Of a DNA stretch of 64,000 nucleotides, positions 36,014-56,615 are shown in pieces. Within the stretch, counting starts at the first letter, position 1; each line of letters starts with the position of its first letter. Origin of the DNA: Vicinamibacterales bacterium (GTDB lineage Bacteria; Acidobacteriota; Vicinamibacteria; Vicinamibacterales; SCN-69-37); NCBI GenBank assembly GCA_039925145.1, contig JBDSZL010000047.1, positions 5,216-69,215 of the forward strand. Direction: 5' to 3'. The notes beneath the pieces were generated by a model that was not told the DNA's origin, ran no database searches, and worked only from the letters and a program-made list of their open reading frames with translations. The position numbers and the translations under genes were made by a program.

Positions 36014-37833
36014 ACGAACCGCGGCCTGACGAACACCCCGAGATTGCGTGTGTCCTTGGAGCCGGGTTCCCGCTCGGCGGGCACAAACCCGTTCGACGTC
36101 GTCATGTGCAGCACGTACGCGTAGCTCTGGTGATAACGCTCGCCCTCGAGGCTGCCGATCTGCACGCGCGACTCCTGCCCGGCCTTTAACGTCACCGAGA
36201 ACGGCCGACCGTCGAGCCGGCCCTCGACCGTGTTTTCGATCGGCGCGCTGAAGATGATGTCCATCCGCTTGAGCACGTGCTCCGTCCTGACGACAATCTC
36301 GGCCGTCGCCTGGCCCGCGATCCAGAGCCCGTCCCCTTCGGCCGAGTAGGTATGGCCGTCCATGTAGTAGAGGAGCACCGTCGGCTCGCGTACGAATAGG
36401 ATCGGACCGCGGAGCTGGTTCAGCCGGACGGGCAGATCGTTCAGCAGCGTGATCTCGATGGGCAGCCAGCGGAGGGGCGCCCGCTCGACGTTCTTCCACG
36501 TCGCCGCGGAAGCCGCAAAAGGATGCAGCACCATGGCGCCGGTGAACGCCACCCCTCCTGCGAGCGCGAGGACGGCGGTGGGCAGCCCAATGCCCGTCCA
36601 GGCTAGAAATAGCAGCGGCGGATAGAGACTGAGAAAGTAGCGGTTTCCAGGCGGCCCTCCTCCGCCGTTCCAGCTGTCGGGAAAGAACACGATCAGCGCC
36701 GCCACTGATCCGGCGACCGCGAGCGCGGTGGCGACCTGCCACACACGCACGCGTCGAGGGTGCAGGAGCCAGCCGGCGGCGATCACAACCCCCGGGAAAT
36801 AGAACGGGATGAGGCCTGCGTGGCGGCCGACGAAGAAGTAGAGCACGTTGATCGGCACCTGCTCGAGCGCGTCGGATGCGAGCACTCGACCGGTGTCGGC
36901 GTCGTTGGTGACCATCGCATGGCCTGTGGTGTCGAACCTGGTGCCCTGCTCATCGAATGGGTACGCGTCGTAGAACGACCGCCGATCGGTCGTCTGCTGC
37001 GCACCCTGATAGTTCGCCTCGCCGGTGATCAGCGCGTTGAGACCGAAGAGTCCCGCCGTCGAGGCCACGAACACGACCGCGACCAGCAGGCCCTCTCTGA
37101 TTCGACGGCCGATCAGCGCGTCGACGACGAGCGGCGCGATCAGCGCGGCATTCGTGCCTTTCGAGAACGCCGCCAGGCCAATCAGCAGTGCGGCGATCAG
37201 GGTGGTGGCCGGCGATGTGAGCCAGCGTCGCGGCTCTGCCGATGCCACCTTCTTGTAGAGCCATAGAAAGTACGCGAAGAACACCAGCGAGAAATTGAAG
37301 ACCTCTGACGTGAGCCAGGCGCCGAACACCGGCACCACAGATGCCATGACGAACGCGAACGCGAGCAACCACCCGGTGAGCCGGCCCGTCACGGCAGCAG
37401 CGAAGAGCGCACCGCACCAGATGCAACCCGCGAGGAGCAGGCCGTTGAAAATCAACATCCCGCCGAGACCTCCGACGACGACGAAGGGCGCCGCGGCGGC
37501 CGGGTAGATCAGCGCCTTGCCGAAGGAGAGACTTTCGTCGGCGGGTACGGGCGACGGATTGTGCAGGCTGAAGTGATAGCTCCGTTTGAGGAAAATTCCG
37601 CTGGGGCCCCGCTCGTACACAGCCTTGAAGCGACGGTAGTCCTCCGGCCGCCATCTCAGGTCGCCGTCGTTCGCAAGGCTCGACGCCATGGCGATGTAGG
37701 TCGCCTCATCCCCCTTGATGTCGCCCGCGACGTGGCGGACATCGATGAGGCGGCCACAGAGTGTCGCCAGAACGACTGCTCCGACCACGACGAGCCACTT
37801 CGAGAGCTGACCGTGCTGCATGAGTCGCTGCAT
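35992..37833 (-). CDS. GT-C-type membrane glycosyltransferase (GT39/ArnT/PMT_2-like) with C-terminal periplasmic domain
   Basis: The start is set at ATG 37833. The first-loop GDEATYIAMASSLANDGDL segment resembles the GT-C DE-x-x-Y motif. About 10+ TM segments are followed by a roughly 170-aa soluble tail. Confidence 0.65.
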   Translation of the reverse strand: MQRLMQHGQLSKWLVVVGAVVLATLCGRLIDVRHVAGDIKGDEATYIAMASSLANDGDLRWRPEDYRRFKAVYERGPSGIFLKRSYHFSLHNPSPVPADESLSFGKALIYPAAAAPFVVVGGLGGMLIFNGLLLAGCIWCGALFAAAVTGRLTGWLLAFAFVMASVVPVFGAWLTSEVFNFSLVFFAYFLWLYKKVASAEPRRWLTSPATTLIAALLIGLAAFSKGTNAALIAPLVVDALIGRRIREGLLVAVVFVASTAGLFGLNALITGEANYQGAQQTTDRRSFYDAYPFDEQGTRFDTTGHAMVTNDADTGRVLASDALEQVPINVLYFFVGRHAGLIPFYFPGVVIAAGWLLHPRRVRVWQVATALAVAGSVAALIVFFPDSWNGGGGPPGNRYFLSLYPPLLFLAWTGIGLPTAVLALAGGVAFTGAMVLHPFAASAATWKNVERAPLRWLPIEITLLNDLPVRLNQLRGPILFVREPTVLLYYMDGHTYSAEGDGLWIAGQATAEIVVRTEHVLKRMDIIFSAPIENTVEGRLDGRPFSVTLKAGQESRVQIGSLEGERYHQSYAYVLHMTTSNGFVPAEREPGSKDTRNLGVFVRPRFVYEDEPR

Positions 37834-37903
37834 AGTAATCGATGACCAGCCGTCAATCGCGCCGGGCCGGTCTTTCGATGCAGGCCGCCCTATCTGGCGT
37901 GGC

Positions 37904-39562
37904 TCACGGCCAGCGCGTGATCTGGTAGAGCCAGATGTCCGGGCCCCGCAGCAGCGGACGGAGATAGGCCTCGTAATCACGGAGACGCTGCGTGATGACC
38001 TGCCGGCCGGCCTCGTCGTAGTCCTCGAGCCGCCAGAGGACGTACCGGACGTCGCGCGCCTTCATGATCGCGAACGATGCGGCGTCCGGGAAGGCGTTGA
38101 TGGGCAATGCGATCTCGTACATGTCCGGTGGTGTGACATCGCTGTAGCCATTCACCATCGGCTGCCAGTGGTACGTAGACCAGAACATGGGCCAGCCGTG
38201 CGTGTGGAAGGTATTGGGCGTATAGGGAAATGGAAACTCGACGAGCGGGGCGCGCGGTAGCCCCGCGAGCTTGCTGTAGGCGGCCGGTACCGGAGGCAGA
38301 TCGCGCAACGGCCACGACGGCCACCCGTGCTCCGGCGTGCGGACGCTGAGCTCGCAAGCAACAAGCAGTACGAGGACAGCTGGAAGCCAACGGCGTCGAC
38401 GCTCCAGACGGGCGACTCCGAATCCGGCCACGACTGCCAGCGCGAACGTCGCCACCACTCCAAACCGGGATGGAGCGCGCAGCAGCGTCATGCCGGGTAC
38501 GCCCTGCTGGAGCAGCCAATAGAGACCGGCGCGTGGGCCGAATGATGCCCAGCAGGCAACGGCGGCCATGACGACGTAGCCCACAACAACGCGCGGACGG
38601 ATGCCCCGCCAGACCTCCACCAGACCCACGACGGCCAGCGCGATTACGGCCATGCCGGGGAACAGCACGTCCTCCCACTGCTGCCAGCGCGCCAGGGCGG
38701 GCAACCACCAGTCGTGAGCCACCGCGCTCGATGCGAGATACGACGACCAGTTGGCCGAGTACCCGTCAGATTGAACCGCCCGGCGCAGAAACGTCGAGCC
38801 CGATGCGACCCGTGCAGCCGCGAAGAGACGAAACACGGGGTACAAGAATGCCGCCCCGGCGAGGACCGCGATGCCCAGTCCCACCCAGTACGCTTTGTCC
38901 CGTTTGGCAAGGACCAGTGCGAGCGCGGCGAGACTGCAGCCAGCGAAGATGCCGTAGTAGCCGCACGCGAGCGCCGCCACGGCCAGTGCGGCGCCGAGCT
39001 CCACGCCGCGCCACACATTGGGCCGTTCTGCGAGCCGGTGGTAGGCGAGCATCACGAGCGGGAACGCGAAAATCATCAGCAGCTGAACATGCGCCGTTCG
39101 GGCGGTCATGTAGGGACAGAACGTAAATGCGGTTGCGGCGACCAGCCCGGCTCCGTCCGAGCCGCTGAGCCTCCGCACCAGTGCCCACATCACGACGAAA
39201 CAGAGGAGCAGCGCCGTCGCCACCGCGCCGTTGAGCGCGGCCAGGGCACTGCCAGTCACGGCGTACCAGGGCAGTCCCAGTATCCCCGCTACGAGATTCA
39301 ACTCGGAGTAGGCCAGCGTGCCCTTGTGGGGCCACATGATGTTGGCGTCGAGCAGACTGCCGGGATCGGTCAGGAGCGCGTGGTCGATCCATGCCACATT
39401 CCAGATGCTGAAACGCCCGTCGTCAGTATCGAGCCGGCCTGCTGTTGTCGGGTGCGTGAGGGTCGGGGCCGTGAGGATCGCCACGAGGACGGCGCCGAGC
39501 AGCGTGGTGCGCCAGAAGAGCCACCAGCCGCGGGCCTCGCTGCGGTCAGGAGGCATGCGCAT
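37904..39562 (-). CDS. Polytopic membrane protein, putative GT-C-like glycosyltransferase
   Basis: 552 aa with many TM segments. The early periplasmic loop reads DTDDGRFSIWNVAWIDHAL. The C-terminal soluble part ends with YVLW..ITRWP. The function is inferred only. Confidence 0.5.
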   Translation of the reverse strand: MRMPPDRSEARGWWLFWRTTLLGAVLVAILTAPTLTHPTTAGRLDTDDGRFSIWNVAWIDHALLTDPGSLLDANIMWPHKGTLAYSELNLVAGILGLPWYAVTGSALAALNGAVATALLLCFVVMWALVRRLSGSDGAGLVAATAFTFCPYMTARTAHVQLLMIFAFPLVMLAYHRLAERPNVWRGVELGAALAVAALACGYYGIFAGCSLAALALVLAKRDKAYWVGLGIAVLAGAAFLYPVFRLFAAARVASGSTFLRRAVQSDGYSANWSSYLASSAVAHDWWLPALARWQQWEDVLFPGMAVIALAVVGLVEVWRGIRPRVVVGYVVMAAVACWASFGPRAGLYWLLQQGVPGMTLLRAPSRFGVVATFALAVVAGFGVARLERRRRWLPAVLVLLVACELSVRTPEHGWPSWPLRDLPPVPAAYSKLAGLPRAPLVEFPFPYTPNTFHTHGWPMFWSTYHWQPMVNGYSDVTPPDMYEIALPINAFPDAASFAIMKARDVRYVLWRLEDYDEAGRQVITQRLRDYEAYLRPLLRGPDIWLYQITRWP

Positions 39563-42928: not shown

Positions 42929-44203
42929 GTGCACATGAGCCGGAGCCTTTTCTACTCGAGCATCTCGGCCGGCAGCGCGCTGCTGATGCTGCTCCTGCTC
43001 GTGCTCGCGGGGCGCGAGTGGGGCGTCGACGGACTGGGCCCGTTCTCGTACGCGATCGGCCTGGCGACCATCGCCGAAGTCTTCATGGATTTCGGCCTGC
43101 ACCAGGTCACGATTCGTACTGTCGCTCGAGACACCACGCAGGCCGGACGGCTGCTGCACACCTCGATAGCGCTGAAAGCGGCGCCCGGCCTGGCGATGAT
43201 CCTGCTGTTTGGCCTCGGGGCCACGCTGCTCCGAGCCGACCCCATCGTGCGCGCCGCGTGCTGGCTGATGCTGGGCTCGGCAGCCATGCGCTCGTATCTG
43301 CTCACCGCGCGGGGCGTGCTCCAGGGACTCGAGCGGTTCGGCGACGATGCCCTGATTACCGTCGGCGATCGGCTGCTCCTGCTCGTCGCGTGCGGCACGG
43401 CGCTGTGGTTGCACGCCGGAGTCATCACGGTCTGCCTCGTGTTCCTCGTCGTTCGCGCCTTCACAGCGGCAGCCGCGCTGCTGCTGGCCAAGCTGCGGGC
43501 CGGACATGGCGCGATCGATCGGGAGCTGTGGCGGCGTCTGCCAGGCGAGGCGGTGCCGCTCGGCCTCTTTCTGCTCGTCCTCAACGTGTACAACCGCGTC
43601 GACACCGTCATGCTCGGCAGCATGGCCGGAGATCCCAACAGGAGCACGGGTCTTTATGGTGCCGCGTATCAGCTGTACGAGGGATCGACCTACCCGGCGG
43701 CTATCGTCGCCGCCGTTCTGATTCCACGACTGTCACGCCTGATTGGGAACCAGACCGCAGAGTATCGCCATCTCGTCCGGACCGGTCTTGCGGGGGTACT
43801 GGCGGTCGCGCTGATCGTGCTGGCGGTTGGCTGGCCGCTGGTTGGCTGGGGGATTCGGCTCACCTACGGCGGAGAGTTCGACATGGCCAGCCACACGCTT
43901 CGCATCCTGCTGGCGGGATTGCCCGCGGTCTACGCAACATGGGTGCTGCACGCCGTGGCGATGTCGGCCCACCGGAACAAGCAGCTCCTGTGGGCCACGG
44001 GCATCGGCACCGCGTTCAACATCGCGCTGAACAGTCTGCTGATTCCCCGATACGCGCACGACGGGGCGGCACTGGCCACCGTGGCGAGCGAATACGTGGT
44101 CACCGCCATGCTCTGGATTGGGTTGCGACCTGCCTGGAACCTTCGTGCGGTGAAGTCCACGGGCGCCGCAGACCCCGTCGGATCGTCGCCCGGTCGTCAG
44201 TAG
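42929..44203 (+). CDS. Oligosaccharide flippase (Wzx/MOP family)
   Basis: 424 aa, about 12 TM segments, MOP-like organisation. The overlapping 466-aa ORF in another frame is Arg-rich junk. Confidence 0.75.
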   Translation: MHMSRSLFYSSISAGSALLMLLLLVLAGREWGVDGLGPFSYAIGLATIAEVFMDFGLHQVTIRTVARDTTQAGRLLHTSIALKAAPGLAMILLFGLGATLLRADPIVRAACWLMLGSAAMRSYLLTARGVLQGLERFGDDALITVGDRLLLLVACGTALWLHAGVITVCLVFLVVRAFTAAAALLLAKLRAGHGAIDRELWRRLPGEAVPLGLFLLVLNVYNRVDTVMLGSMAGDPNRSTGLYGAAYQLYEGSTYPAAIVAAVLIPRLSRLIGNQTAEYRHLVRTGLAGVLAVALIVLAVGWPLVGWGIRLTYGGEFDMASHTLRILLAGLPAVYATWVLHAVAMSAHRNKQLLWATGIGTAFNIALNSLLIPRYAHDGAALATVASEYVVTAMLWIGLRPAWNLRAVKSTGAADPVGSSPGRQ

Positions 44204-45216
44204 CGGCGTACTGCACGCGACGTCACGCTCGTCCCGCCGGTCGGCGGCTGTTCGAACGTCTGCTGTAGGGCCTTCAGGAACGTCTCCGCAATCACTTTGT
44301 ATCCCTGCGCGGTGGGGTGTAGCCCGTCATCGCCAATCAGCAGATCCTTCAAGGGCTCCAGCGTCCCGTAGATCTCGACGAGCTCTGCGCCTTCGCGCGC
44401 GGCTACGTCGCGGATCATGTCGTTGATGTCTTCAATGCCGTCAGGGTTGCTCGCACGGCTGCCCTTGGTTTCGGGCGGCAAGGTCGCGAGGTACACCTTC
44501 CGTACGCCCTCGGCCTGGGCTCGACGCACGTCACTGCGGAGACTCTGCGCGACCCGCGCAACGTAGCCCGGTTCCTGCTGGTTCGCATCGTTGCTGCCTT
44601 CGAGGAGCAGAACCGCATCGGGGCGGTATCGCTGCACGACGGTGGCGAAGCGGTCTTCGTCGGCGACGGCCCTGCGCCCTTGTTCTCCCTCGTTCAATAC
44701 AGCGATCGTCTGGCGGGAATAGCGCGCCTGCAGCAGCGCCTGCAGCAGCGCCTGCAGCACCGTGGGATAGCTGTGTGCCGGATCGTATTCGTGCAGCGTG
44801 ATCACGGGTTGGGCCACCTCGCCCCAGGTGATGCTGTCGCCAAACGCAAGCACGGTCGTGCCGAGCAGGCGCGGCACCACCGTCACGGCCACGTGAAACA
44901 CGCATTGGGCCTTTCGCTGCTGCGCGTCGGTCGCCGCGCACACGACGTCCGTCGTGCCCGCAGCAAACGTCGCGCCCGACTGCACGGTGCACGTGGCGGT
45001 GACCGGCTGCGCTCCGCCGGTGATCACCGGCGGCGCGTAGGTGACGTTCATCGGTGCTGCATCTGCCTCCATCGTCAGGTCCGATGGGCACACAATGGCG
45101 GGCGCGACCGCCTGCGCCGGTGGGTCGGGCTCCACAGGCGGCCGTGGCGCGTGGCTGCACGCGGCCATGCTGATGCCGATGACCAGTGTCACGAGAAGGG
45201 CCGGGATGGATCGCAC
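44197..45216 (-). CDS. Lipoprotein: HYR-like Ig domain + SGNH/GDSL hydrolase
   Basis: Lipobox SMAAC. The HYR-like module runs CPSDL....TYAPP..TGG......C (IVCPSDLTMEADAAPMNVTYAPPVITGG...VVCAATDAQQRKAQCVF). SGNH blocks are FGDSIT, NEGEQG, EGSNDA and DGLHPT. Confidence 0.8.
   Translation of the reverse strand: MRSIPALLVTLVIGISMAACSHAPRPPVEPDPPAQAVAPAIVCPSDLTMEADAAPMNVTYAPPVITGGAQPVTATCTVQSGATFAAGTTDVVCAATDAQQRKAQCVFHVAVTVVPRLLGTTVLAFGDSITWGEVAQPVITLHEYDPAHSYPTVLQALLQALLQARYSRQTIAVLNEGEQGRRAVADEDRFATVVQRYRPDAVLLLEGSNDANQQEPGYVARVAQSLRSDVRRAQAEGVRKVYLATLPPETKGSRASNPDGIEDINDMIRDVAAREGAELVEIYGTLEPLKDLLIGDDGLHPTAQGYKVIAETFLKALQQTFEQPPTGGTSVTSRAVRRY
44724..44759. repeat. Tandem repeat, 3 x 12 bp (GCGCCTGCAGCA), in frame within the SGNH gene
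   Basis: It is read directly from the sequence and encodes LQALLQALLQA. The paralog has one unit fewer (LQSLLQA). Confidence 0.9.
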
Positions 45217-45218
45217 GG

Positions 45219-46292
45219 TCAGCGACGCTTGAACGGAGTGGCGATACCTTGGCTGCCAGGCGCAGGCAGGGGTTGCTCGAATGTGTCCTGGATGGCCTTC
45301 ATGAAGGTCTCGGCAATCACGCGGTAGCCTTGAACGGTCGGGTGCAGGCCATCGCTGCCGATGAGCAGATCCTTCCGGGGCTCGATAGCGGCAAACACAT
45401 CGACCAGTTCGGCGCCGTCACGACGGGCCACATCCTCGATTAGCCGGTTCGTCGTGACGATGTCAGCTGGGTTCGCGGCGTTCCTGCCGGTCGTGAACGG
45501 CGGCAGAGTCGCGAGATACACCTTGCGGACGTTGTTGTCCCTGGCTCGGCGCACATCATTACTCAGGCTGCGAGCAACCGCCTCAGGGCTGACATTGTCG
45601 TGCACGTCGTTGGTCCCCTCCATCAGCAGCAGGACGTCTGGATTCGTCCTGCGAATCTCGTCCACAAGACGCTGCTCGGAGTTGTTCGGATCGCTGCAGA
45701 GCAGTCCTCCCCACTTCTTCAGCTCGACAGCGTCGAGGCTGCAGCTGGCGCGCTCTCCCCCAAGCCCCTTATTGATTACGGTCACCGTCTGCTTCTTGTA
45801 ACGCGCCTGGAGCAAGCTCTGAAGAATGGTCGGGTAGTTATTGACCGGGTCCACGTTGCGGACGTTCGACACGAACGCGGTGATTTCGCCCTCGGTCAGG
45901 CTGTCCCCATAGGCCAGGAATCTGGTGCCGATCAGCATCCGCAGCTGCGTCACGTTGACGTGAAAGACGCACTGCGCCTTGCGCGCGCCCGAGTCAGTGG
46001 CCGTACACACGACGTCGGAGGTACCTGCGGGAAACGCCTTCCCCGAGTCGATCGTGCAGGTCGTCGTGATGGGCGCGGTTCCGCCGGTGACGGTAGGCGC
46101 CGGGTAATTGATGACGATCGGCGTCAGGTCGGCGTCGACCGCGATGTCAGACGGGCACGTGAGCGACGGCGCCTGGACGGGTGGCGGTTCGGGTTCGGTC
46201 GGCCCGGCGGGCGCGCGCTTATGACAGGCCGATAACGCACCGCACAGTGCCAGGGCCAGAAAGATGCGGGAGACGAGAGACCGTATGTGCAC
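45219..46292 (-). CDS. Lipoprotein: HYR-like Ig domain + SGNH/GDSL hydrolase (paralog of 44197..45216)
   Basis: I propose GTG 46292 as the start (VHIRSLVSRIFLALALCGALSAC lipobox). It has the same CPSDI HYR-like module. SGNH blocks are YGDSLT, NKGLGG, EGTNDV and DGLHPT. Confidence 0.8.
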   Translation of the reverse strand: MHIRSLVSRIFLALALCGALSACHKRAPAGPTEPEPPPVQAPSLTCPSDIAVDADLTPIVINYPAPTVTGGTAPITTTCTIDSGKAFPAGTSDVVCTATDSGARKAQCVFHVNVTQLRMLIGTRFLAYGDSLTEGEITAFVSNVRNVDPVNNYPTILQSLLQARYKKQTVTVINKGLGGERASCSLDAVELKKWGGLLCSDPNNSEQRLVDEIRRTNPDVLLLMEGTNDVHDNVSPEAVARSLSNDVRRARDNNVRKVYLATLPPFTTGRNAANPADIVTTNRLIEDVARRDGAELVDVFAAIEPRKDLLIGSDGLHPTVQGYRVIAETFMKAIQDTFEQPLPAPGSQGIATPFKRR

Positions 46293-46372
46293 AGCAAGCC
46301 CAACCTGGACAGGTGGGCTCGCTGTGCAAGTTATCGGGGCGACGCCCGTTTCGTCAAGTTGACGGAGAGTCC

Positions 46373-47608
46373 CTACCAGCGGATCAGGACGATGTTCGTC
46401 CGTTCCGCAGTGGTCCACTGCCCGGCGCGAGCGGGCGTGCTCATCGCGACGCCGACGATCTCACCAGGTGCCGGAGTCCAGCTCTCGAGGAGGGTGCCGC
46501 CGTAGCCGCCCTGCCCAACGTGGCCGTCCATGTTTTTGCAGATCTGACCGGGTCGGAGCCATTCATTGGCGCCGCCGTACCACTTGCCGCCGATGTTGGC
46601 AAAGAACCATTGGTTGCCTTCGACGAGCACGCTATTGTCGCCAAACCAGCCCACGGTAGGCCATCGGCCGGCCTTCGTGTGGTTGATGCAGAGGTCGCCG
46701 CCAGACCGCCCCGCCGAGGTAATCGTGGACGTGACCGCCCACCCGCGAATGTCCTCGCCTTTGACCACACTGATGTTACGGACGTCGATGTCGTCGTTAG
46801 GGGCCGGTGTTGGTGTGCCGGGCTGGGGCGGGGTCGGACCGGCTGCCGCGGCCGGTGTCACGAACGAACGCACGGCCGACCACTCGCCCACGCGCGCGAA
46901 GTCGAATGCCCGGACGCGCCAGAAGAAGCGTGTGGAGGCCGCGAGCTCGTTCGGCACGAAGGACGTGTGGCCGCTGCCGGCCAGGACGTCGCCGACGGCC
47001 ACCCGGTTGCCCATGCCGCCGTCTGTCGCGACCTCGAACAGATAGTGGATGGCGCCGGCAGGACCCGACACCGACGCATTGTTGACGTCGAGCGTCGGTT
47101 TGTTGGTGGCGACGGTCGCGCCGTCGGCAGGGCTGGTCAAGGCCGGGATTCCGATGACGACCGGTGTGAAGACCGTGAAATCGGCCGCGGCCGAAAACTC
47201 CCCTTCGTTGGCGCCGTCGATCGCGCGCACCCGCCAGTAATAGACCCGCTCGGCGGCCAGTGGCTGGGGCAGCCTGAGCTGCGTGCGTCCCCCCTCGCCC
47301 GGCGTCACGCCGGTCTGCGAGAATACGACGCTCGAGAAACCGCTGTCGCTGGCCACCTGGAACACGTAATTGAGCGGTCGAACGCCGTTCGAGCTGGCAT
47401 TCTGGACCACGAGCGTGATCGGCTGGGTGTCAGCGGCGACCTTGGTCCCGGCACTCGGTGATACCGGGCCAGGGGCGGAAATCTCCACGCCGGCGATGGG
47501 CCCCGCAATGGACGGACTCAGCGGTGTGGCGCTCTTGGCCTGTTCGCACGCGGCGAACACGGTCACGGGGAGCAGCAGGAGGAGAAGGCGCATCCAGGCG
47601 TAACGCAT
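46373..47608 (-). CDS. Lipoprotein with two Ig/FN3-like modules (YYWRVRA / FFWRVRA) and an unassigned conserved C-terminal domain
   Basis: Signal plus lipobox VFAAC. There are two roughly 100-aa modules, a Pro-rich linker, then about 150 aa containing NQWFFANIGGKWYGGANEWLR and GVAMSTPARA. Confidence 0.75.
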   Translation of the reverse strand: MRYAWMRLLLLLLPVTVFAACEQAKSATPLSPSIAGPIAGVEISAPGPVSPSAGTKVAADTQPITLVVQNASSNGVRPLNYVFQVASDSGFSSVVFSQTGVTPGEGGRTQLRLPQPLAAERVYYWRVRAIDGANEGEFSAAADFTVFTPVVIGIPALTSPADGATVATNKPTLDVNNASVSGPAGAIHYLFEVATDGGMGNRVAVGDVLAGSGHTSFVPNELAASTRFFWRVRAFDFARVGEWSAVRSFVTPAAAAGPTPPQPGTPTPAPNDDIDVRNISVVKGEDIRGWAVTSTITSAGRSGGDLCINHTKAGRWPTVGWFGDNSVLVEGNQWFFANIGGKWYGGANEWLRPGQICKNMDGHVGQGGYGGTLLESWTPAPGEIVGVAMSTPARAGQWTTAERTNIVLIRW

Positions 47609-47695
47609 ACAGAAACCTTTGTTGGAGCACGGCCCTTGAACTGGAGGGACCTAAGTGTCCTATCGGCGGGAGCGGCGAAGCGCTACAGCATCGGA

Positions 47696-47737
47696 GCGAC
47701 AAAAGCGAAAGGCGCTGGCCAAGAGGCCAACGCCCTT
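47696..47737 (-). terminator. Intrinsic terminator downstream of 47827..49011
   Basis: On the minus strand: GGCGTTGGCC-TCTT-GGCCAGCGCC (10-bp stem with 1 mismatch), followed by TTTCGCTTTTGT. Confidence 0.65.
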
Positions 47738-47826
47738 CTGTCTCTGCGATTTCGACCCTACCTGAACCGGAACGCGAGCCCCTAGTCGACGTGCGGCGGA
47801 TCAGGCGAGGGCCTCTGCCCTACCAG

Positions 47827-49011
47827 TTACCTTCCAGCGGGCCAGGGCACCATCACGACGTTGCTGCGCTGATCCACGGTCTTCATCTCGGGCCACGCGC
47901 GGGCGGGCGACGTGATCATGACGCCGATGACATCGCCGGTGTGAAGCACCGTCTCGTTGAACGGGAAGACGCCACCCAGGCTGTCCTTGAAGAAGTCCTG
48001 GTCGTAGTCGCGTTTACAGAACTGCGGCCAGGCGCGCATCCAGGCTGCCGCGCCGCCGTACCAGGTGCCGCCCCGGTTGATGAAGACCCACTGGTTCGCG
48101 TAGACCGTGTCCGGTCCGCCGAAGAAGGGGGCTTCGGGCCAGCCTGGGTCTTCGTATTCGGTGCAGAGAATTTCAGTGTCGAATGACTGGAAGAAGACGT
48201 TGTTCAACTTGACCGTCTCGGGCCACGTGGCTACGTGGCCGGGGCCGAACGCAATGACGGCTTTCGCGAGATCCAACCCGAAGCGCCGTTCGAAGCCCGC
48301 CGCATTGCTGAAGGGGCCTGTGACTCCGAGCGTGATTTCCTTGGCCCGCACGCGCCAGAACAGATTGCCCTCGGGCAAATCCGCATTGGGCGTCCACGAT
48401 GTCGTCGTGTTCTGTTCCTGCACCGTGGCCGATGCGATCACCGTGCCGAAGGCGGCCGAGTTGGACACCTGGAAGTCGTAGAAGATCGTGCCCGCCGGAC
48501 CGGTGCGCGTGGCATTGGCCACCGTGAACGTGGGCCGGGGCGCAAACACGGAGGCGCCCGTCGCCGGCTGCTGCAGCCCTGGCGCGTTGATCACCAAGTT
48601 GGGTCGCACGAAAAACGACCGGACCGTTGAGGGCTCGCCAGCGACACCGTCGACAATTGCGCGTGACCGCCAGAAGTACGTGATGTTGCCGGCCAGCTGC
48701 GGCAGGGTGGCCGTGGTGGTGCCACTACCGCCCTGCTCGATGCCATCGAGTGCCACCACCGGCGAGGCAAAGCTGGCGTTGTTGGAGACTTCGACGGCAT
48801 AGGTCACCGGCTTCGTCCCGGTCGTGACCGAGTTGACGATCTGCAGCGTGATGGGCTGCTGTGTAAAGTTGTAGGCGAGACCGTTGGACGGCTGATCCGC
48901 GACGGGCGCCGCGAAGCTTACCGACGGTCGTGTGGGATTGTTCGTGCTGCAGGCCCAGACCGCCAGGGCGGACGCCAGAACAACAGTTAGACCAAGAACA
49001 CGTACTTTCAT
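47827..49011 (-). CDS. Lipoprotein, paralog of 46373..47608 (two Ig/FN3-like modules + the same unassigned C-terminal domain)
   Basis: Lipobox AVWAC. Modules end in YFWRSRA and LFWRVRA. The C-terminus contains NQWVFINRGGTWYGGAAAWMR and GVMITSPARA. Confidence 0.75.
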   Translation of the reverse strand: MKVRVLGLTVVLASALAVWACSTNNPTRPSVSFAAPVADQPSNGLAYNFTQQPITLQIVNSVTTGTKPVTYAVEVSNNASFASPVVALDGIEQGGSGTTTATLPQLAGNITYFWRSRAIVDGVAGEPSTVRSFFVRPNLVINAPGLQQPATGASVFAPRPTFTVANATRTGPAGTIFYDFQVSNSAAFGTVIASATVQEQNTTTSWTPNADLPEGNLFWRVRAKEITLGVTGPFSNAAGFERRFGLDLAKAVIAFGPGHVATWPETVKLNNVFFQSFDTEILCTEYEDPGWPEAPFFGGPDTVYANQWVFINRGGTWYGGAAAWMRAWPQFCKRDYDQDFFKDSLGGVFPFNETVLHTGDVIGVMITSPARAWPEMKTVDQRSNVVMVPWPAGR

Positions 49012-49158
49012 TCGTTCTCCAAGCGAACGAGGCGCGCGGTGTGAGCACCTCGAGACTGACGCGCCGCTGACTCGCGGCAGGAAACTGTCGTTGAGAATAC
49101 GGCCCTAATCTCATGGTGTCAACGCGTTTACGTCAAAAAATCAGGGAGGCGAAGGCTC

Positions 49159-50054: not shown

Positions 50055-51341
50055 TTGATGACCACGCAGCCCAGGATCCTCCTCTTAACGGCGTACTACT
50101 TTCCGTTTCAGGGCGGCGTCGAGACACACGCCCGAGCGCTGGCCGGCTTCCTCGTGTCGGCTGGATTCTCGGTGTCCATCGTGACCCGGCAGGTCGATCG
50201 GACTTCGCCTCGCCGCGAACTCCTCGAAGGCGTGCCGGTGCATCGCGTCTGGCCGCGGGGGCCACGGACGGGCATTCGGAAGTTGTTGATGCTGCCTTCT
50301 GCAATCCTCGAGATTCTGCGCCTGCGACGCACGTTCGATGTGATCTACTGCCCGGGCTACCAGGGCATCGGCGTGGCTGCGCTGCTGTGCGGGAAGCTGC
50401 TGGGACGACCGGTGATCCTGCGTTCAGGCAATCTAGGCGTGCTCTACGGAAACAACTGGGACGCACCGCTCGCGCGGTGGCGCATCGACCCAGACATCGC
50501 CATCGTCCGGTGGCTCAAGGCCCGGGCGCGGCGCATGTACATGTCTGCCGACGCGCTGGTGTGTAACTGCCGCGACATCGAGCGCGAGGCCCTCGACTGC
50601 GGGATGCCCCGCGACCGAGTGCACTATCTGCCCAACGGGGTCGACCTTCAGCAGTATCACCCTGCGTCGGCCGCCGAACGAACCGACGTCCGCGCGGAAG
50701 AGGGATGGCCGGAGAACACGCTCGTGTGCGTGTACCTCGGAAGGCTGAGCGTCGAGAAGGGTGTGCTCGATCTGCTCCAGGCCTGGCGGACGGTGGCCCG
50801 GCCCGAACGGCTGCTCGTGCTGGTCGGACCTGACATGACGGGCAACGCGCTCGACGCCGGCCCGGCCGCGCGCGCCTTTGTCGCACGCCATGGCCTCGAG
50901 TCGGTCGTCAGGTTTCACGGCCCATGCGTCAGTCCGGCGCGGCTACTGCGCGGCGCCGACCTGTACACACAACCCTCCCATTACGAGGCATTCAGCAACG
51001 CCGTGATCGAAGCGATGGCTACAGGACTGCCGCTCGTGGCGTCGCGTGTCGGAGGGATGCTCGACTGTATCGACGACGAGCAGAACGGACTGCTCTGCAA
51101 TCCGGCGGATTCAACCGACCTCGCGCGCCAGTTGTCGAGGCTCGTCGACGATGCGCCAATCCGAGAGAGGCTGGGACGGCAGGCACGCGATCGCGTCGCG
51201 AACGACTTCGACAAGACAATCATCTTCCGGCGGTTTGCCGATCTGTTCGTCGCCGTTGCGAGGTCAGGCTCGGCTACGCGCGAGCGGCCGCCAGAGGCTG
51301 GCGCACCCCGAGAATCTCCCGATGCCAATGTTCGAGCATGA
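50055..51341 (+). CDS. Glycosyltransferase family 4
   Basis: RILLLTAYYFPFQGGVETH N-terminus and the EAFSNAVIEAMATGLPLV E-x7-E motif. The start is TTG 50055 or ATG 50058. Confidence 0.8.
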   Translation: MMTTQPRILLLTAYYFPFQGGVETHARALAGFLVSAGFSVSIVTRQVDRTSPRRELLEGVPVHRVWPRGPRTGIRKLLMLPSAILEILRLRRTFDVIYCPGYQGIGVAALLCGKLLGRPVILRSGNLGVLYGNNWDAPLARWRIDPDIAIVRWLKARARRMYMSADALVCNCRDIEREALDCGMPRDRVHYLPNGVDLQQYHPASAAERTDVRAEEGWPENTLVCVYLGRLSVEKGVLDLLQAWRTVARPERLLVLVGPDMTGNALDAGPAARAFVARHGLESVVRFHGPCVSPARLLRGADLYTQPSHYEAFSNAVIEAMATGLPLVASRVGGMLDCIDDEQNGLLCNPADSTDLARQLSRLVDDAPIRERLGRQARDRVANDFDKTIIFRRFADLFVAVARSGSATRERPPEAGAPRESPDANVRA

Positions 51342-53199
51342 GCAGCGCCCATAGCCTGGAGGCGTTGTTGCGCCGGCCACTCCGGTGGTCTTCGATAAGT
51401 CTCTCGACGGCTTCGCGGCGGAAGTAGCCTCGCTCGAGCGTCGCGGAGTCGAGCAGCACATCGCGCAGATATCCGTAGAGCTCCTGCCGGAGCCACTCGG
51501 CCAGCGGGATGCTGAACCCCATCTTGCGGCGGTACAGCGCGTCGCGCGGCACGATGTCTCGATACGCGGACTTCAGAATCTTCTTGTTCTCGGTCGACGT
51601 GACCTTCCAGGCACGCGGCAATGACGCGGCGAATTCCATGACCGCGACATCGAGCAATGGCGCGCGGGCTTCGAGCGACGCCGCCATGGATGCGATATCC
51701 ACCTTCACGAGCAGGGTGTCGGGCAGATACATGAGCGTATCGGTGCGGAGCGCACGATCGACGGGGTCTGGCCCCGTCTCGGCCGCGCTTGCCGCCATGA
51801 GGTCGAGGAGGTACCGGTCGGCGTTCGCGTCCCGGAGCCTGCCGGCGAACGCGGATGTGTAGAGCGCCTGGCGGTCTCCGGCCACGAACTCGCGCTGAGT
51901 GAACAGGTGCAGATTGAACGCGTCTGGCTCCTGCCGAGCCGCGTGCGTAAAACGGCGCACTTGCCGCAGCCAGGAATGGCGTTTCGATCCCTCGGGTAGC
52001 CAGCACGTCAGTCGCTCGGCCAGATCGCGCAGCCCTGGCGTGGTGAGGGCGCGATACGCTGCCTGGACGACGAGTGCCCGGTAGCGCTCGTAGCCGCCGA
52101 ACATTTCGTCGCCGCCGTCGCCGGTGAGCGCCACGGTGACCCGCTGCCGTGTGAGCCGGCTGACCTGATAGGTCGGCAACGCCGACGAGTCGGCAAACGG
52201 CTGATCGTAATGCCACGCCAACTTCGGGAGAATGTCGACTGTGTCGGGCTCGACGACGAACTCTTCGTGATCGGTGCCGAAGCGGTCGGCCACCATCCGG
52301 GCGTACCGCCGTTCATCGAACTGCTGGCGCGCGAAGCCGATGGAGAACGTCTTGACCCGCGTCGAGCTCTCTGCCATGGCGGCGACCACGACCGACGAGT
52401 CGACGCCGCCGGACAGAAACGCACCGAGCGGCACGTCGGCGATGAGCCGGGCGCGCGTCGCCTGCCCAATCAGGTCGCGTAGATGGTGCTGCGCCTCGTC
52501 GTAGGTCAGCGACGTCTTCGGCTGCCACCTGGCGGTCCAGTACGTCTCGATGCGAGGTTCGGTGCCAGGCGACCACGTGAGCGCGGATGCCGGAGGCAGC
52601 CGGAAGATGTGTTTGAAAATCGTCGTTGTTCCCGGCACGGCCGCATAGGCCAGGTACAAATCGAGCGAGTCCGGGTCGACCTCGCGCGGACAATTGGGCA
52701 ACGTCAGCAGCGCCTTGATCTCGGAGGCGAAGTACAACCCATCGCTGTCGCGGAACCAGTAGAGCGGCTTCTTGCCGATACGGTCGCGTGCAAGGAGAAG
52801 GCGTCTGCTATGGCTGTCCCAGAGGCCGAACGCGAACATGCCGTTCAGCTCGGGGAGCGCAGCGGTCCATTTCTCTTCGACGAGGTGTACGAGCGCCTCG
52901 GTGTCACTGCGCGTGCGAAAGCGATGCCCCCCGGATTCGAGTCGGGCGCGGAGTTCCTGAAAGTTGTAGATCTCACCGTTGAAGGTGATCCAGCACCGCT
53001 CGTGCTCGTCGGCCATCGGCTGGGCGCCGCCGGCGAGATCCACGATTGAGAGGCGCCGGTGCCCGAGGCCGCAGCCTGGCATCGCGCGGTGTCCCTCCCC
53101 GTCGGGGCCTCGATGGACCAGGGTATCCGTCATGGCTCTGAGCTGACGGACGTCGGGCGTCGATCCGTCGGCCGTGACAATGCCCGCGATGCCGCACAC
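51274..53199 (-). CDS. asnB: Asparagine synthase (glutamine-hydrolysing) family amidotransferase
   Basis: MCGIAGIV Ntn-Cys start and SGGVDSS PP-loop. Its location in a glycan locus suggests a sugar-amidating role; that part is inference. Confidence 0.85.
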   Translation of the reverse strand: MCGIAGIVTADGSTPDVRQLRAMTDTLVHRGPDGEGHRAMPGCGLGHRRLSIVDLAGGAQPMADEHERCWITFNGEIYNFQELRARLESGGHRFRTRSDTEALVHLVEEKWTAALPELNGMFAFGLWDSHSRRLLLARDRIGKKPLYWFRDSDGLYFASEIKALLTLPNCPREVDPDSLDLYLAYAAVPGTTTIFKHIFRLPPASALTWSPGTEPRIETYWTARWQPKTSLTYDEAQHHLRDLIGQATRARLIADVPLGAFLSGGVDSSVVVAAMAESSTRVKTFSIGFARQQFDERRYARMVADRFGTDHEEFVVEPDTVDILPKLAWHYDQPFADSSALPTYQVSRLTRQRVTVALTGDGGDEMFGGYERYRALVVQAAYRALTTPGLRDLAERLTCWLPEGSKRHSWLRQVRRFTHAARQEPDAFNLHLFTQREFVAGDRQALYTSAFAGRLRDANADRYLLDLMAASAAETGPDPVDRALRTDTLMYLPDTLLVKVDIASMAASLEARAPLLDVAVMEFAASLPRAWKVTSTENKKILKSAYRDIVPRDALYRRKMGFSIPLAEWLRQELYGYLRDVLLDSATLERGYFRREAVERLIEDHRSGRRNNASRLWALLMLEHWHREILGVRQPLAAARA

Positions 53200-53243: not shown

Positions 53244-54779
53244 TCATTCGGCCGGCGGGCACAAGTACCAGAGACTGACCTTTTCGGCGCCTGCGCACGG
53301 CTCCTCCGTGATGGTCAGCAGGCGCGCCGTCGCGGCGGCGGTCCGCTGGTATTCATCGATGCGCACCATGTCGGTCGAGGCGATCTTTACCTGTTCACGC
53401 GCGAGAAACGTGACCTTGTAGGCGCGCCAGTAACCGGCCTGCGCGGTGCGGATGCCGCGGGCCACCAGGCCGTCTGCCAGGTCGCGTGGCTCATTCGGCT
53501 CGCGTCCGCCCCAGTACCGGGAGACCTGTGCCGCGTGATCGATGGCGGATCCGGCCATCCACACGGCCAGTCCAGCTGCGGCCACGTACCGAAGCGCGGC
53601 CTTCGGTTCCAGCGCGAGCCACACCGCTGCAATTCCAACAGGCAGCAGCATCGTCAGCAGGATGTATCTGTAGACGACGTCCTCGGCGGGTCGTGTGGCG
53701 ATGTAGCCACCGGCAGCCAGAATGCCCACCGCGATCAGATACCAGCCGAAGAGCGATCTCGTAAACGCGCCGGGCGCCCGAAGGAGAATCCCAGCGCGTA
53801 AAAGCGCGAGGGTGAGACCGCCGAGCAACGGCCAGAACAGCCAGGCGTGCCCCTGCGTGCTGATGACATCGACGCGTCGTTGCGCGCCCCACAGTTCCGG
53901 AAGGTGACGCGTGAACATCGCCTGCGCCCGCGCGGGAAGTTCGGCGGGTGTGACTGCGATCCGGTCCATGATGTTGCCCACCTGCGAGTCGGCAAATCCG
54001 CGGATCAACTGCCCGCGCGTCCCCGGGCCCATCATGTCTGAGTAGGGCTGAAGCGCCTGAAGCACCTGCCACGTCGCCAGCGTCGCCACCATCGCCACGA
54101 GCCAGAATCGCCGGCGCTCCTCGCACTGCAGCGCGCCCTGTAACAACTCGACGCCAAGAAGTGCCACTACGGCGTAGATCGTGAACTCACGGTTGAGGAA
54201 CCCAATACCGAGCACGAGGCCGAACCAGAGCGGCCGACGCCTCAGCATCCAGAGCAACGGCACGTAGAGGAACGGACCGATGTTCGCGCCGGCTTCGATG
54301 AGCGATGCGCTCGTGAGCGGCGGCGCAAAGGCGAAGAAGACGACGGCGCCAAGCGCCTGCATCGGCGTCACGCCCCCCCATCGCACGAGGCAGCGGATCA
54401 GCAGCACGGCCGCCGCCATGTTCATCAGCACGAGCGCGGTATGAAGAGCCGTGACGGTCGGTCCCATCACGAGAAAAATCGGCGCAGCAACCCAGGCATC
54501 GACGACGAGCATGTAGGCCTGGCCGTAATAGAACAGGGGGAACGCCCGGCCCTCGACGAGGTGTTTTGCCATGAGCCCGACGATGGCCTGGTCCGAGTCG
54601 AAGAACGACTGTTCGTAGCAGAGGAAGATGAGGCTGCGTGCGAGGACCAGCGCGCACGCGATGGCGCTGGGGAGCAGCAAACATCGATCGGGCACGTTCG
54701 TGTCGGCCGGAACGCTTGCGACAGACGCCGTCTTCGAAGGAGCGTCCGCCCGTCCGCGCATTGTCGGGTATGCTAGCAC
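53244..54779 (-). CDS. Polytopic membrane protein, GT-C-like (GT39-like) putative glycosyltransferase
   Basis: 511 aa with many TM segments. The early loop reads FFDSDQAIVGLMAKHLVEGRAFPLFYYGQAY. ATG 54761 is an alternative start. Confidence 0.55.
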   Translation of the reverse strand: MLAYPTMRGRADAPSKTASVASVPADTNVPDRCLLLPSAIACALVLARSLIFLCYEQSFFDSDQAIVGLMAKHLVEGRAFPLFYYGQAYMLVVDAWVAAPIFLVMGPTVTALHTALVLMNMAAAVLLIRCLVRWGGVTPMQALGAVVFFAFAPPLTSASLIEAGANIGPFLYVPLLWMLRRRPLWFGLVLGIGFLNREFTIYAVVALLGVELLQGALQCEERRRFWLVAMVATLATWQVLQALQPYSDMMGPGTRGQLIRGFADSQVGNIMDRIAVTPAELPARAQAMFTRHLPELWGAQRRVDVISTQGHAWLFWPLLGGLTLALLRAGILLRAPGAFTRSLFGWYLIAVGILAAGGYIATRPAEDVVYRYILLTMLLPVGIAAVWLALEPKAALRYVAAAGLAVWMAGSAIDHAAQVSRYWGGREPNEPRDLADGLVARGIRTAQAGYWRAYKVTFLAREQVKIASTDMVRIDEYQRTAAATARLLTITEEPCAGAEKVSLWYLCPPAE

Positions 54780-54794: not shown

Positions 54795-56615
54795 ATGCGC
54801 ACCGCTCTCCCCGCTCTGCGAGCCGCGTCCGGCGCTCTCGCGATTGCAGTCGCACTGGCGACGTTCGGCGCCTATCTACAGCAAAGTCCTCCGCAGACGG
54901 TTCTCGCCCCCGCTTGCCCGGCGGCCGCGGAACTGGCGGGTGTCGTCATCGCCCGAATGTGGCCGTCCGCGCCGCTCGGGCTGGTCGTGCTCCGAATCGA
55001 ACCGGTGATCACCGTCATAGGCCTGGCGGCGTTGCTCCTGCTGCTCGCCCGTCTGACCGCCAGTTGGATCGTTGCGGTCGCCATCGCAGGAGCGATGACG
55101 GCGCTGCCGTTGTTCTCACCAGTGCTCGCACCACTGCACGGGGCGACCTTTGCGGTTGTTGCGGTGACGATGCTGCTGCTGGTGCCGCAGGAGGGGACGT
55201 CACGGTCGCCGCTTCCCTTCTGGTCGGTCGTTGCGCTCGTTTGCACGGCGGCCGTCGTGCCTGCCGCGACGCTACCGCTTGCGGGTCTTGGGGCGTGGCT
55301 GACTCTACAGCGCGGGTCCGATGCTCGGCCCCGCCCTTCCCACGCGCTCCTCGTAGCAGCGATGATTGCCGCCTCGGCTGTGGCGGTGCGACTGCTGCTA
55401 CCCACTCTGCCATCGGGGTCCCGCGAATGGAGTTGTCTGGTCCCAGCCACAGGACGCCCCGTCGACCTGCTGGCAGCAATCGCCGCGCCGCTGAAGGATG
55501 CTGGGCCGTACGTGTGCGGGCTCGCCCTGTTGGCAGTGGTCGCGTGCCGAAAGCAGCTGGCCGGCCCCGCCGCCCGCCCCGTGATCGCCTACGGCGCGAT
55601 TCTGGCCGTCGCTGGTCTTGCTTCGCTCAGCGGTCCGACAATGGCCCGCGTGCCGCTGACCGTCGCTCTCTGGGTCGGTGCGGCAGTCGGCCTGCGTGAG
55701 CTCGTTCGCGGGTGTCGTCGCACGACCACCGGACATGTCGCAGCGACCGTGCTCGTCGTCCTCGTACCTCTGCTCGCGGTGTCGGCACGGATCCAGCAGC
55801 CCGTTGTGACGCCGCCCCAGTTCGGGCACGCGGCGCTGTCACGCGCGCAGCTCGCTCAGCTGCTTGACCGGTTGCCACCCGGTGCCGGTCTCGTGAGTGA
55901 GGATGCGGTCGTGGACGTGCTCCTGCGCAGCCGCGCGGGTGGAAGGATTGCGGCGTCCGATGCGCTCCACGTGATTCCGAGGGTGCCGGCCGAGATTGCT
56001 GCCGAGCTCCGTGCCGTCTCGGCGGGCGTCTTTGCGCTGCCGCTGGCCCAGGAGCAGTTGCAGCAGCTCGGCATGCGTCTGACCGACGTCGGCGCTGCGG
56101 CTGGGCTCGCGCGGGTGGACGTCGGTGGTGACTGCCGGCCGCTTCGAGGTTCATGGCGCACGCTCCCGAACCTCAGGGATGCGCAGGCGCTGACGATGGC
56201 CGCGCAGGCCGAGGGCGACACCGGGCCCGTCGTCGCATATCTGACTTTCGATGTGACGCCCTCGCCGGCAGCGCGGACCTGGCCGGCGCGCGCGCTGCGG
56301 GGATTCAACGTGACGCTCTATGACCTGTCGAACGACAGGGACTGGGCGGCGCTGCGGGCCGCATCGATCGATGACCAGGCGCCTCTGGATGTCGAGGTCG
56401 CCAGCCGGCGCGGCCACGTGCTCCGGCTCGAACAATGGCGGACGCCCGGGGCGCCACTGGCATTGACCACGGAGTTTCGCGCGGCGATCACTGGGGGCGT
56501 CGCGCGCTCGCTTGCGCCCGAGGCGGGCACCGATCGGCCAACGCGGCTCTCGCTATGTCCGGCCTTCCCGCACGAAGTCAGAGACTTTGACCGCCAAGGC
56601 AGTCGGGTGCCGTAG
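54795..56615 (+). CDS. Membrane protein of unknown function (N-terminal polytopic region + ~270-aa soluble C-terminal domain)
   Basis: 606-aa ORF with a hydrophobic N-terminal 330 aa. I recognise no family. Confidence 0.55.
   Translation: MRTALPALRAASGALAIAVALATFGAYLQQSPPQTVLAPACPAAAELAGVVIARMWPSAPLGLVVLRIEPVITVIGLAALLLLLARLTASWIVAVAIAGAMTALPLFSPVLAPLHGATFAVVAVTMLLLVPQEGTSRSPLPFWSVVALVCTAAVVPAATLPLAGLGAWLTLQRGSDARPRPSHALLVAAMIAASAVAVRLLLPTLPSGSREWSCLVPATGRPVDLLAAIAAPLKDAGPYVCGLALLAVVACRKQLAGPAARPVIAYGAILAVAGLASLSGPTMARVPLTVALWVGAAVGLRELVRGCRRTTTGHVAATVLVVLVPLLAVSARIQQPVVTPPQFGHAALSRAQLAQLLDRLPPGAGLVSEDAVVDVLLRSRAGGRIAASDALHVIPRVPAEIAAELRAVSAGVFALPLAQEQLQQLGMRLTDVGAAAGLARVDVGGDCRPLRGSWRTLPNLRDAQALTMAAQAEGDTGPVVAYLTFDVTPSPAARTWPARALRGFNVTLYDLSNDRDWAALRAASIDDQAPLDVEVASRRGHVLRLEQWRTPGAPLALTTEFRAAITGGVARSLAPEAGTDRPTRLSLCPAFPHEVRDFDRQGSRVP

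Follow-up and report, generated by a model that had tools for sequence, protein, structure and literature searches.

A 64,000-nucleotide stretch of DNA from a Vicinamibacterales bacterium (contig JBDSZL010000047.1, positions 5,216 to 69,215; called the window here, with a G+C content of 64 to 68% throughout) carries two adjacent genes, A and B, whose products are predicted lipoproteins ending in the same kind of C-terminal domain. Judged against the libraries we searched, this domain represents a real, conserved, and previously undescribed extracytoplasmic family. We regard the chances as evenly balanced that it acts as a membrane-tethered, noncatalytic glycan-binding module serving the exopolysaccharide (EPS) of the locus in which the two genes lie.

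A and B are paralogs with a common architecture

Both genes are read from the minus strand of the window, B first and then A. Their parts are as follows (aa, amino acids; HMM, hidden Markov model; ORF, open reading frame).

47827 to 49011, minus strand: gene B, 394 aa, the upstream, divergent paralog, with a lipobox, two FN3-like (fibronectin type III-like) modules, and the C-terminal domain (from the ORF, BLASTP, and family HMMs)
48949 to 49011, minus strand: predicted B signal peptide and lipobox (MKVRVLGLTVVLASALAVWA, then C21), read from the translation
48607 to 48909, minus strand: B FN3-like module 1, approximately residues 35 to 135, ending in YFWRSRA (family module HMM, E=4e-32)
48286 to 48597, minus strand: B FN3-like module 2, approximately residues 139 to 242, ending in LFWRVRA (family module HMM, E=1e-34)
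47830 to 48309, minus strand: B C-terminal domain, residues 235 to 394, the divergent copy (AlphaFold2 pLDDT 88.6, pTM 0.85)
46373 to 47608, minus strand: gene A, 411 aa, or 406 aa from the second ATG (listed as P0014), the downstream, canonical paralog
47546 to 47608, minus strand: predicted A signal peptide and lipobox (MRYAWMRLLLLLLPVTVFAA, then C21), read from the translation; orthologs show LLSVA-CE and similar ends
47165 to 47479, minus strand: A FN3-like module 1, residues 44 to 148 (Pfam Ig_Rha78A_N at 31.3 bits, and PhoD_N; family HMM, E=3e-47)
46853 to 47164, minus strand: A FN3-like module 2, residues 149 to 252 (family HMM, E=5e-46)
46802 to 46852, minus strand: Pro/Thr/Ala-rich linker (AAAAGPTPPQPGTPTPAP) ahead of the A C-terminal domain
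46376 to 46801, minus strand: A C-terminal domain, residues 270 to 411, the canonical copy (AlphaFold2 pLDDT 95.2, pTM 0.89)

Across their full length the two proteins are 31% identical (BLASTP, E=1e-48), a similarity far beyond chance by which we class them as paralogs. A sequence-only reading of this DNA had described just such a pair, with one architecture consisting of a lipobox, two immunoglobulin (Ig)- or FN3-like modules of about 100 aa, and a C-terminal domain, and each of these elements is present in both proteins. Every motif it quoted can likewise be read in the translations: the aromatic-WR motifs that close the modules (YYWRVRA and FFWRVRA in A, YFWRSRA and LFWRVRA in B), the Cys-pair motifs (LCI/LCT and ICKN/FCKR), the counterparts NQWFFANIGGKWYGGANEWLR with NQWVFINRGGTWYGGAAAWMR and GEIVGVAMSTPARA with GDVIGVMITSPARA, and the motifs near the C-termini (ERTNIVLIRW and QRSNVVMVPW).

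As a lipobox we took an N-terminal signal peptide ending in [LVI][ASTVI][GAS]C. The lipobox-like ends are PVTVFAA-C21 in A and SALAVWA-C21 in B, the latter with an atypical W at -2. The family alignments show Cys as their majority residue around position 20, and a lipobox-like N-terminus is found in 120 of 170 full-length members. From their translations we assign A and B to the lipoproteins, with predicted lipidation as substrates of Lgt and LspA.

The two modules of each protein are homologous repeats. In A, module 1 and module 2 share 40% identity (E=5e-16) and align in HHalign with a probability of 99.7% (E=1e-25), and family HMMs detect both modules in both proteins. Module 1 of A also matches the FN3-like Pfam family Ig_Rha78A_N (PF25788; 31.3 bits against a gathering cutoff of 27.4), as it does PhoD_N, which is likewise FN3-like, and orthologs are annotated with PF25788 and PF16655; a Pfam-A scan of B gave no match anywhere in the protein. 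On these sequence similarities the modules are FN3-like repeats of the Rha78A_N/PhoD_N type. In A the second module is separated from the C-terminal domain by the Pro/Thr/Ala-rich linker, which has Pro-rich equivalents in aligned homologs. Linkers of this composition are typical O-glycosylation sites in other bacteria, and by that analogy A might be among the substrates of its own locus.

The C-terminal domain matches no described family and is modeled with an FN3-like core

The C-terminal domain is approximately 140 to 160 aa long. This part of A and B has no profile match in Pfam-A, NCBIfam, PHROGs, or PADLOC, even at E values up to 1, and because PHROGs and PADLOC yielded nothing, a phage-structural or defense assignment of the two proteins has no support. 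Nor does any Pfam family cover the domain across 104 diverse members. Searches of PDB sequences with phmmer and with a profile (hmmsearch) returned only chance-level matches (best E=0.03; e.g., YopM, StcE, and HLA-DR), and a tblastn search of 50,697 annotated phage records found no match to the domain, though one metagenomic fusion to a gpD-like protein exists. A literature search on Vicinamibacter lipoproteins and exopolysaccharide, on DUF6311, and on HYR domains combined with SGNH found nothing relevant.

AlphaFold2 models of the two domains, built from an alignment of 103 to 104 sequences, are confident and nearly all-β. Compared by Foldseek with the PDB and BFVD, neither model had a match at E≤0.001; BFVD gave nothing meaningful, and the PDB searches with both models contained no lectin, carbohydrate-binding module (CBM), or glycoside hydrolase catalytic domain at E below 0.05. 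The sole structural matches, for the A model and the B model alike, were generic FN3 domains, with E values of 2e-3 to 1e-2 and template modeling (TM) scores of 0.31 to 0.42 over the query and up to 0.55 when normalized to the targets of about 100 aa. For the B model these matches had a Foldseek probability of approximately 1.0 and target-normalized TM scores reaching 0.52 to 0.55. Our measure of an FN3/Ig-like fold was a TM score of at least 0.5 over the domain. Because FN3 domains are the only matches and their TM scores over the query are low, the models suggest an FN3/Ig-like sandwich core with 40 to 60 residues of family-specific elaboration: the core is likely FN3-like, and the domain as a whole is not a standard FN3. 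The sequence-only reading had been unable to place the domain. That no described family accounts for it stands, also after we looked in these libraries for a characterized lectin or glycoside hydrolase family that might claim it and found none; the models add the refinement that the core itself is FN3/Ig-like.

Two specific identities were rejected. At the sequence level, the domain shows no relationship to the FN3-like modules that precede it (HHalign probability below 1%), so it is not a third such module that has diverged. It is also not a copper protein resembling the lytic polysaccharide monooxygenases of family AA10, in that the mature N-terminus is the predicted lipidated Cys and not the His from which those enzymes build their copper histidine brace, and the domain is C-terminal. 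There is only one conserved His in the domain, and it is replaceable by Y, F, or W.

The domain defines a large family and usually stands at the end of Ig-like stalks

Homolog searches with single sequences were weak because of the word index (12 matches for A and 1 for B), and we used profile and exhaustive searches. A profile search of 5.8 billion proteins yielded 466 members, all the named ones being "hypothetical protein" from metagenome-assembled genomes (MAGs) of Vicinamibacterales and other Acidobacteriota. An exhaustive HMMER search of 1.84 billion cluster representatives (50% identity) found 1,387 clusters at E≤1e-3 and 880 at E≤1e-10, all of them unnamed and most from Vicinamibacterales. 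More distant members come from MAGs of Candidatus Paceibacterota (P0134 and P0262) and Candidatus Rokubacteria (P0234), and P0209 is a further example, of the candidate phyla radiation (CPR) type.

The domain stands at the C-terminus in 240 of 266 collected members and is in tandem in about 7. In the great majority of fusions it is joined to stalk repeats of Ig-like type, like those of adhesin or binding proteins (Big_1 in 25 members, PKD in 23, Big_3_5 in 15, Ig_Rha78A_N in 11, and Invasin_D3 in 8; also TIG). Four partners were seen in single cases: a Reprolysin peptidase, a leucine-rich repeat, a CPR anchor resembling pilins of type IV secretion systems (T4SS), and Phage_GPD. In the peptidase, P0149, the family domain is a C-terminal appendage to the catalytic domain, a position that ancillary binding modules also take.

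Three of the unusual members can be described further. P0178 (L031, positions 2073 to 3587), from a TARA ocean metagenome, is a P2 gpD-like (Phage_GPD) tail protein that ends in the domain, and its gene adjoins that of a GpU homolog. In the CPR-type proteins the domain comes directly after the signal peptide; in P0209 it is followed by TIG and a C-terminal T4SS-pilin-like membrane segment. One copy of the tandem pair in P0134 lacks C38, H41, and C88 (in the residue numbering of the A domain, used throughout).

Conserved residues point to a disulfide and to a site that differs between A and B

Five Trp residues are near-invariant in the family, along with R83, Q86, K89, R125, and R134, the last being present in 305 of 305 sequences. 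The near-invariant set reads W21, W47-P48, G62-N63-x-W65, W74, W81-x-R83-P-G-Q86-x-K89, G113, R125, and R134, and E61, E114 (or D), and H41 also belong to it. C38 and C88 vary together: 275 of the 305 sequences have both, 29 have neither, and 1 is mixed (counts uncorrected for phylogeny). This near-perfect covariation indicates a probable C38-C88 disulfide, which in turn implies an oxidizing, extracytoplasmic location. A catalytic Cys38-x-x-His41 dyad was ruled out, C38 covarying with C88 as a disulfide pair.

The domain of B differs from the canonical form by H41Y, E61Y, G62A, W108T, and P110L. Similar changes are found in the upstream copy of seven other genomes (L001, L009, L010, L011, L014, L016, and L017), where, as in the window, H41 is replaced by Y, F, or W, W108 by V, T, L, or A, P110 by L, and usually E61 by V, I, or Y; the A-type copy keeps all four. 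It is the other copy that is degenerate in four genomes (L018, L022, L026, and L028), and both copies are canonical in a further four. At least one canonical copy is kept in every genome compared, and the pair thus suggests a canonical copy plus a divergent one. Among the 305 domains, loss of H41 is accompanied by loss of W108 in 17 of 26 cases and of E61 in 18 of 26 (again uncorrected for phylogeny). Since the losses are correlated, H41, E61, W108, and P110 probably form one functional site, remodeled in B. The A-type ortholog in L007 (positions 6824 to 8091) is split into two overlapping calls, one of 261 aa with the FN3-like modules and one of 161 aa with the domain (P0006), which is probably a frameshift, a pseudogene, or an assembly error.

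This pattern bears on whether the domain could be a new small catalytic domain that modifies or cleaves glycan, such as a hydrolase or lyase of EPS or peptidoglycan, active in A and a pseudo-enzyme in B. H41, E61, and E114, with Arg, Lys, Gln, and Asn residues, would make up an active site whose polar residues are very strongly conserved across phyla, and the loss of H41 and E61 from B-type copies, and from one copy of tandem pairs, is typical of active enzymes paired with pseudo-enzymes. The fusion to a gpD/VgrG-like hub protein would suit an enzyme too, C-terminal extensions on such hubs often being enzymatic effectors. Moreover, family scans of the proteins encoded between 30 and 58 kb in the window found no recognizable glycoside hydrolase or lyase, and most EPS loci encode a periplasmic glycanase. 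Against this, the domain, at some 140 aa and built around an FN3-like sandwich, would make a small glycanase, the PDB holds no enzyme fold that resembles it, and H41 and E61 are replaced in approximately 10% of members. Its usual place is the tip of long Ig-like stalks, and in P0149 it follows a bona fide catalytic domain. We consider a catalytic role rather unlikely. Unlikely, too, is the broader proposal of a new compact catalytic fold with an FN3-like core, acting on glycan or the cell wall and common to lipoproteins of soil Acidobacteriota, surface proteins of CPR bacteria, and hubs of phage tails. Canonical A would then be the enzyme that this EPS pathway lacks for processing glycan in the periplasm, partnered by B as a pseudo-enzyme.

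The B-A pair has a conserved place in an EPS-type locus next to HYR-SGNH lipoproteins

Two further genes lie beyond A on the same strand.

45219 to 46418, minus strand: HYR-SGNH lipoprotein 1, directly downstream of A (Lipase_GDSL_2, E=9e-25; HYR, E=1.6e-5)
44197 to 45216, minus strand: HYR-SGNH lipoprotein 2 (Lipase_GDSL_2, E=1.3e-24; HYR, E=1e-6)

By their match to PF13472 and their motifs, AYGDSLTEG and AFGDSITWG in block I and DGLHPT in block V (DxxH), both products are members of the SGNH/GDSL hydrolase family, and their N-termini have the lipobox-like ends LSA-C and MAA-C. The sequence-only reading had placed the downstream copy of the pair directly ahead of these two genes and had counted four consecutive lipoproteins; the Pfam matches bear out the order, and lipobox-like N-termini are found on all four. 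As listed, the ORF of the first HYR-SGNH gene opens with a GTG at 46418 and shares 46 nucleotides (46373 to 46418) with the 3' end of A. Its true start is probably downstream, without overlap, because the signal peptide (SRIFLALALCGALSA, then C) begins about 45 codons later.

The region from 30 to 58 kb of the window is an EPS-type locus. It encodes three glycosyltransferases of family GT4 and two of family GT2, a Wzx/MurJ-like flippase, two methyltransferases, a PgaB-like NodB deacetylase, an AsnB-like amidotransferase, and five large membrane proteins without a family match; within the window, a family HMM finds the domain in A and B only. The amidotransferase (51274 to 53199, minus strand) scores 626 bits against the XrtA/PEP-CTERM EPS amidotransferase model TIGR03108, below the cutoff of 816.9, a match that hints at an EPS locus of the PEP-CTERM/exosortase type. 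The presence of such an AsnB-type enzyme among glycan genes would point to uronic acids. The five large ORFs (31949 to 33652 on the plus strand; 35992 to 37980, 37904 to 39562, and 53244 to 54779 on the minus strand; and 54795 to 56615 on the plus strand) encode membrane-protein-like products of 511 to 662 aa with no Pfam or NCBIfam match and may be GT-C-like transferases or polymerases; the L001 ortholog of 37904 to 39562 carries PF19830 (DUF6311). The combination of GT2, NodB deacetylase, flippase, and large membrane protein resembles an Arn-like (ArnC/ArnD/ArnT) route of periplasmic glycosylation.

When loci that we fetched were probed by tblastn with proteins of the window, the B-A tandem pair was found in 16 distinct loci of Vicinamibacterales and other Acidobacteriota. 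In 14 of the 16, orthologs of the deacetylase, GT2, and Wzx lie within 10 kb, and GT4 genes are also part of the conserved neighborhood. HYR-SGNH genes occur near the pair in about 12 loci, that is, in most of them, and directly after A in at least 8. The conserved linkage to glycan loci for which the sequence-only reading had called thus holds for the pair. It does not extend to the whole family: in the same genomes, a subfamily of about 340 aa adjoins RND/OEP or MacB-type genes and not glycan loci. Of three cases in as many genomes (L005, 10001 to 11026; L032, 8001 to 9020; L033, 8001 to 9062), two immediately follow an AraC-MFP-RND-OEP efflux operon and one neighbors a MacB/FtsX-type ABC gene. 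We therefore ruled out that the domain is intrinsically tied to glycan loci. The tie belongs to the A/B lineage and not to the domain as such, which is also found in the CPR fusions and the phage tail protein.

A further candidate is a protein-protein or structural role, in which A and B would form a hetero-oligomeric lipoprotein scaffold or adhesin that organizes or docks envelope machinery (for example, the export apparatus, the SGNH enzymes, or efflux systems) without binding glycan. Such a role would suit the conserved tandem pair of one canonical and one divergent copy, the family members beside RND/OEP and MacB-type export systems, and an FN3/Ig-like core, which is typical of protein-interaction domains. 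However, an interface conserved among Acidobacteriota, CPR bacteria, and even a phage tail protein argues for a ubiquitous ligand rather than lineage-specific protein partners, and conserved residues rich in Trp, Arg, and Lys are more to be expected where sugars are bound. We judge a purely structural role to be quite unlikely.

One ubiquitous ligand is peptidoglycan, a universal bacterial polymer that would explain the presence of the domain in Acidobacteriota, CPR episymbionts, and a phage tail protein. A and B would then tether the outer membrane to the cell wall as functional analogs of Pal and Lpp, which their lipoprotein-plus-spacer architecture fits, and their position in an EPS locus would be incidental or tied to modification of the cell wall by the deacetylase and SGNH proteins. 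The SGNH and NodB-type deacetylase families do include enzymes that modify the O-acetyl and N-acetyl groups of peptidoglycan. But the conserved synteny is with Wzx, GT2, and GT4 genes of EPS type, and the Pfam and PDB searches revealed no similarity to OmpA-like, LysM, SPOR, SH3b, or PGRP folds. Peptidoglycan binding thus appears very unlikely.

Two predicted transcription signals accompany the pair.

49094 to 49122, minus strand: sigma-70-like promoter match upstream of B (TTGACA-17-TATTCT), a consensus match only
47697 to 47738, minus strand: GC-rich, terminator-like hairpin with a short U-tract between B and A, from a scan and folding

The hairpin, formed by minus-strand positions 47738 to 47707, has a 14-bp stem with a folding energy of -35.4 kcal/mol (z=-5.5), and its tail is CGCUUUUGUCG, with only four consecutive U residues. 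Of the intrinsic terminator that had been proposed to end the upstream copy, the strong hairpin is real, but the U-tract is short.

A and B may present a glycan-binding head outside the cytoplasm

We return to the proposal of a lipid-anchored glycan-binding head. In the mechanism we envisage, A and B would be extracytoplasmic and lipid anchored, and their two FN3-like modules, together with the Pro/Thr-rich linker, would serve as a spacer presenting a C-terminal ligand-binding head. The head would be a disulfide-stabilized β-sandwich with an FN3/Ig-like core and family-specific loops, whose Trp-rich surface, with its conserved Arg, Lys, Gln, Asn, and His residues, would bind a glycan of the cell envelope that is probably anionic. 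Within this lineage of Vicinamibacterales, the pair would have been recruited into a Wzx-dependent EPS locus, where the head would bind the exported or periplasmic polymer and either retain it at whichever membrane holds A and B or present it to the two HYR-SGNH lipoproteins, putative esterases or acyltransferases that may cooperate with the pair. A keeps the canonical site, and the remodeled site of B may imply a different ligand or the role of a nonbinding partner.

We favor the binding head because the domain stands as a head on a stalk, is appended to a peptidase and to a phage tail protein, and has an FN3-like sandwich core, a disulfide, and a conserved set rich in Trp, Arg, and Lys. Further support comes from the synteny, from the EPS-like character of the locus, from the lipoboxes or signal peptides common across the family, and from the correlated losses of H41, E61, W108, and P110 in B-type copies, which point to a single functional site. 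The paralogy, the architecture and lipobox, the confident fold without a known neighbor, the family size, the C-terminal position of the head, the synteny, and the divergence of the B site are computed results. Several points weigh against this proposal. No known CBM or lectin in Pfam or the PDB resembles the domain, and the 22 to 25 or so positions that are at least 90% conserved across phyla are an unusually high number for a binding module. A catalytic function would suit the near-invariant E61, E114 (or D), and H41 equally well. Finally, with the subfamily of about 340 aa outside glycan loci, the ligand need not be a product of the locus. The sequence-only reading had suggested a dedicated processing or binding machinery here; the synteny and the four lipoproteins fit that suggestion, which we carry forward as an inferred role.

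Significance and comparison with known systems

Vicinamibacterales abound in soil but are rarely brought into culture, and to our knowledge their envelope and exopolysaccharide biology is essentially unstudied. The present analysis defines an unannotated family of more than 1,300 clusters with a confident predicted fold that has no structural neighbor in the libraries searched, and it ties one lineage of that family to a conserved EPS-type cluster and HYR-SGNH lipoproteins. It also provides residues for experiment, namely H41, E61, W108, P110, R83, K89, R125, R134, and the C38-C88 disulfide. So far the finding resolves no long-standing question. Should the domain prove to bind or process glycan, CAZy and Pfam would gain a new CBM-like or enzyme family, and acidobacterial EPS loci of this type a marker; otherwise it would be one more domain of unknown function.

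The FN3/Ig-like domains of the insulin receptor (FnIII-1), EpoR, and titin (PDB 8u4b, 1ern, and 8bw6) are likewise all-β and are the only structural matches, whereas the A and B domains are 40 to 60 residues larger and have their own near-invariant motifs (EGNQW, W.RPGQ.CK, STPAR, and ERSN) and a conserved disulfide. In overall logic the proteins recall the invasin and intimin adhesins, in which a row of Ig-like domains presents a C-terminal head, and many family members do use Big_1, Invasin_D3, and PKD stalks. The stalks of A and B, in contrast, are of the Rha78A_N/PhoD_N type, and their anchor is a lipid instead of a β-barrel; a Pfam scan of the two proteins gave no match to a β-barrel, to Big_1, or to a C-type lectin-like domain, which places them, and their heads, outside the intimin/invasin group.

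AlgX, which joins an SGNH-like domain to a CBM, and Ape1, which joins SGNH to a CBM35-like domain, combine an SGNH-fold enzyme with a β-sandwich glycan-binding module for the periplasmic processing of exported polysaccharide. Here the putative binding module and the SGNH domains are carried by different lipoproteins encoded side by side, and no CBM family in Pfam or the PDB matches the module. For the two N-terminal modules alone, the likeness is to Rha78A_N, PhoD_N, and Pur_ac_phosph_N (PF25788, PF16655, and PF16656). In those families such modules precede a catalytic domain, either a GH78 rhamnosidase or a metallophosphatase, whereas in A and B they precede the undescribed domain.

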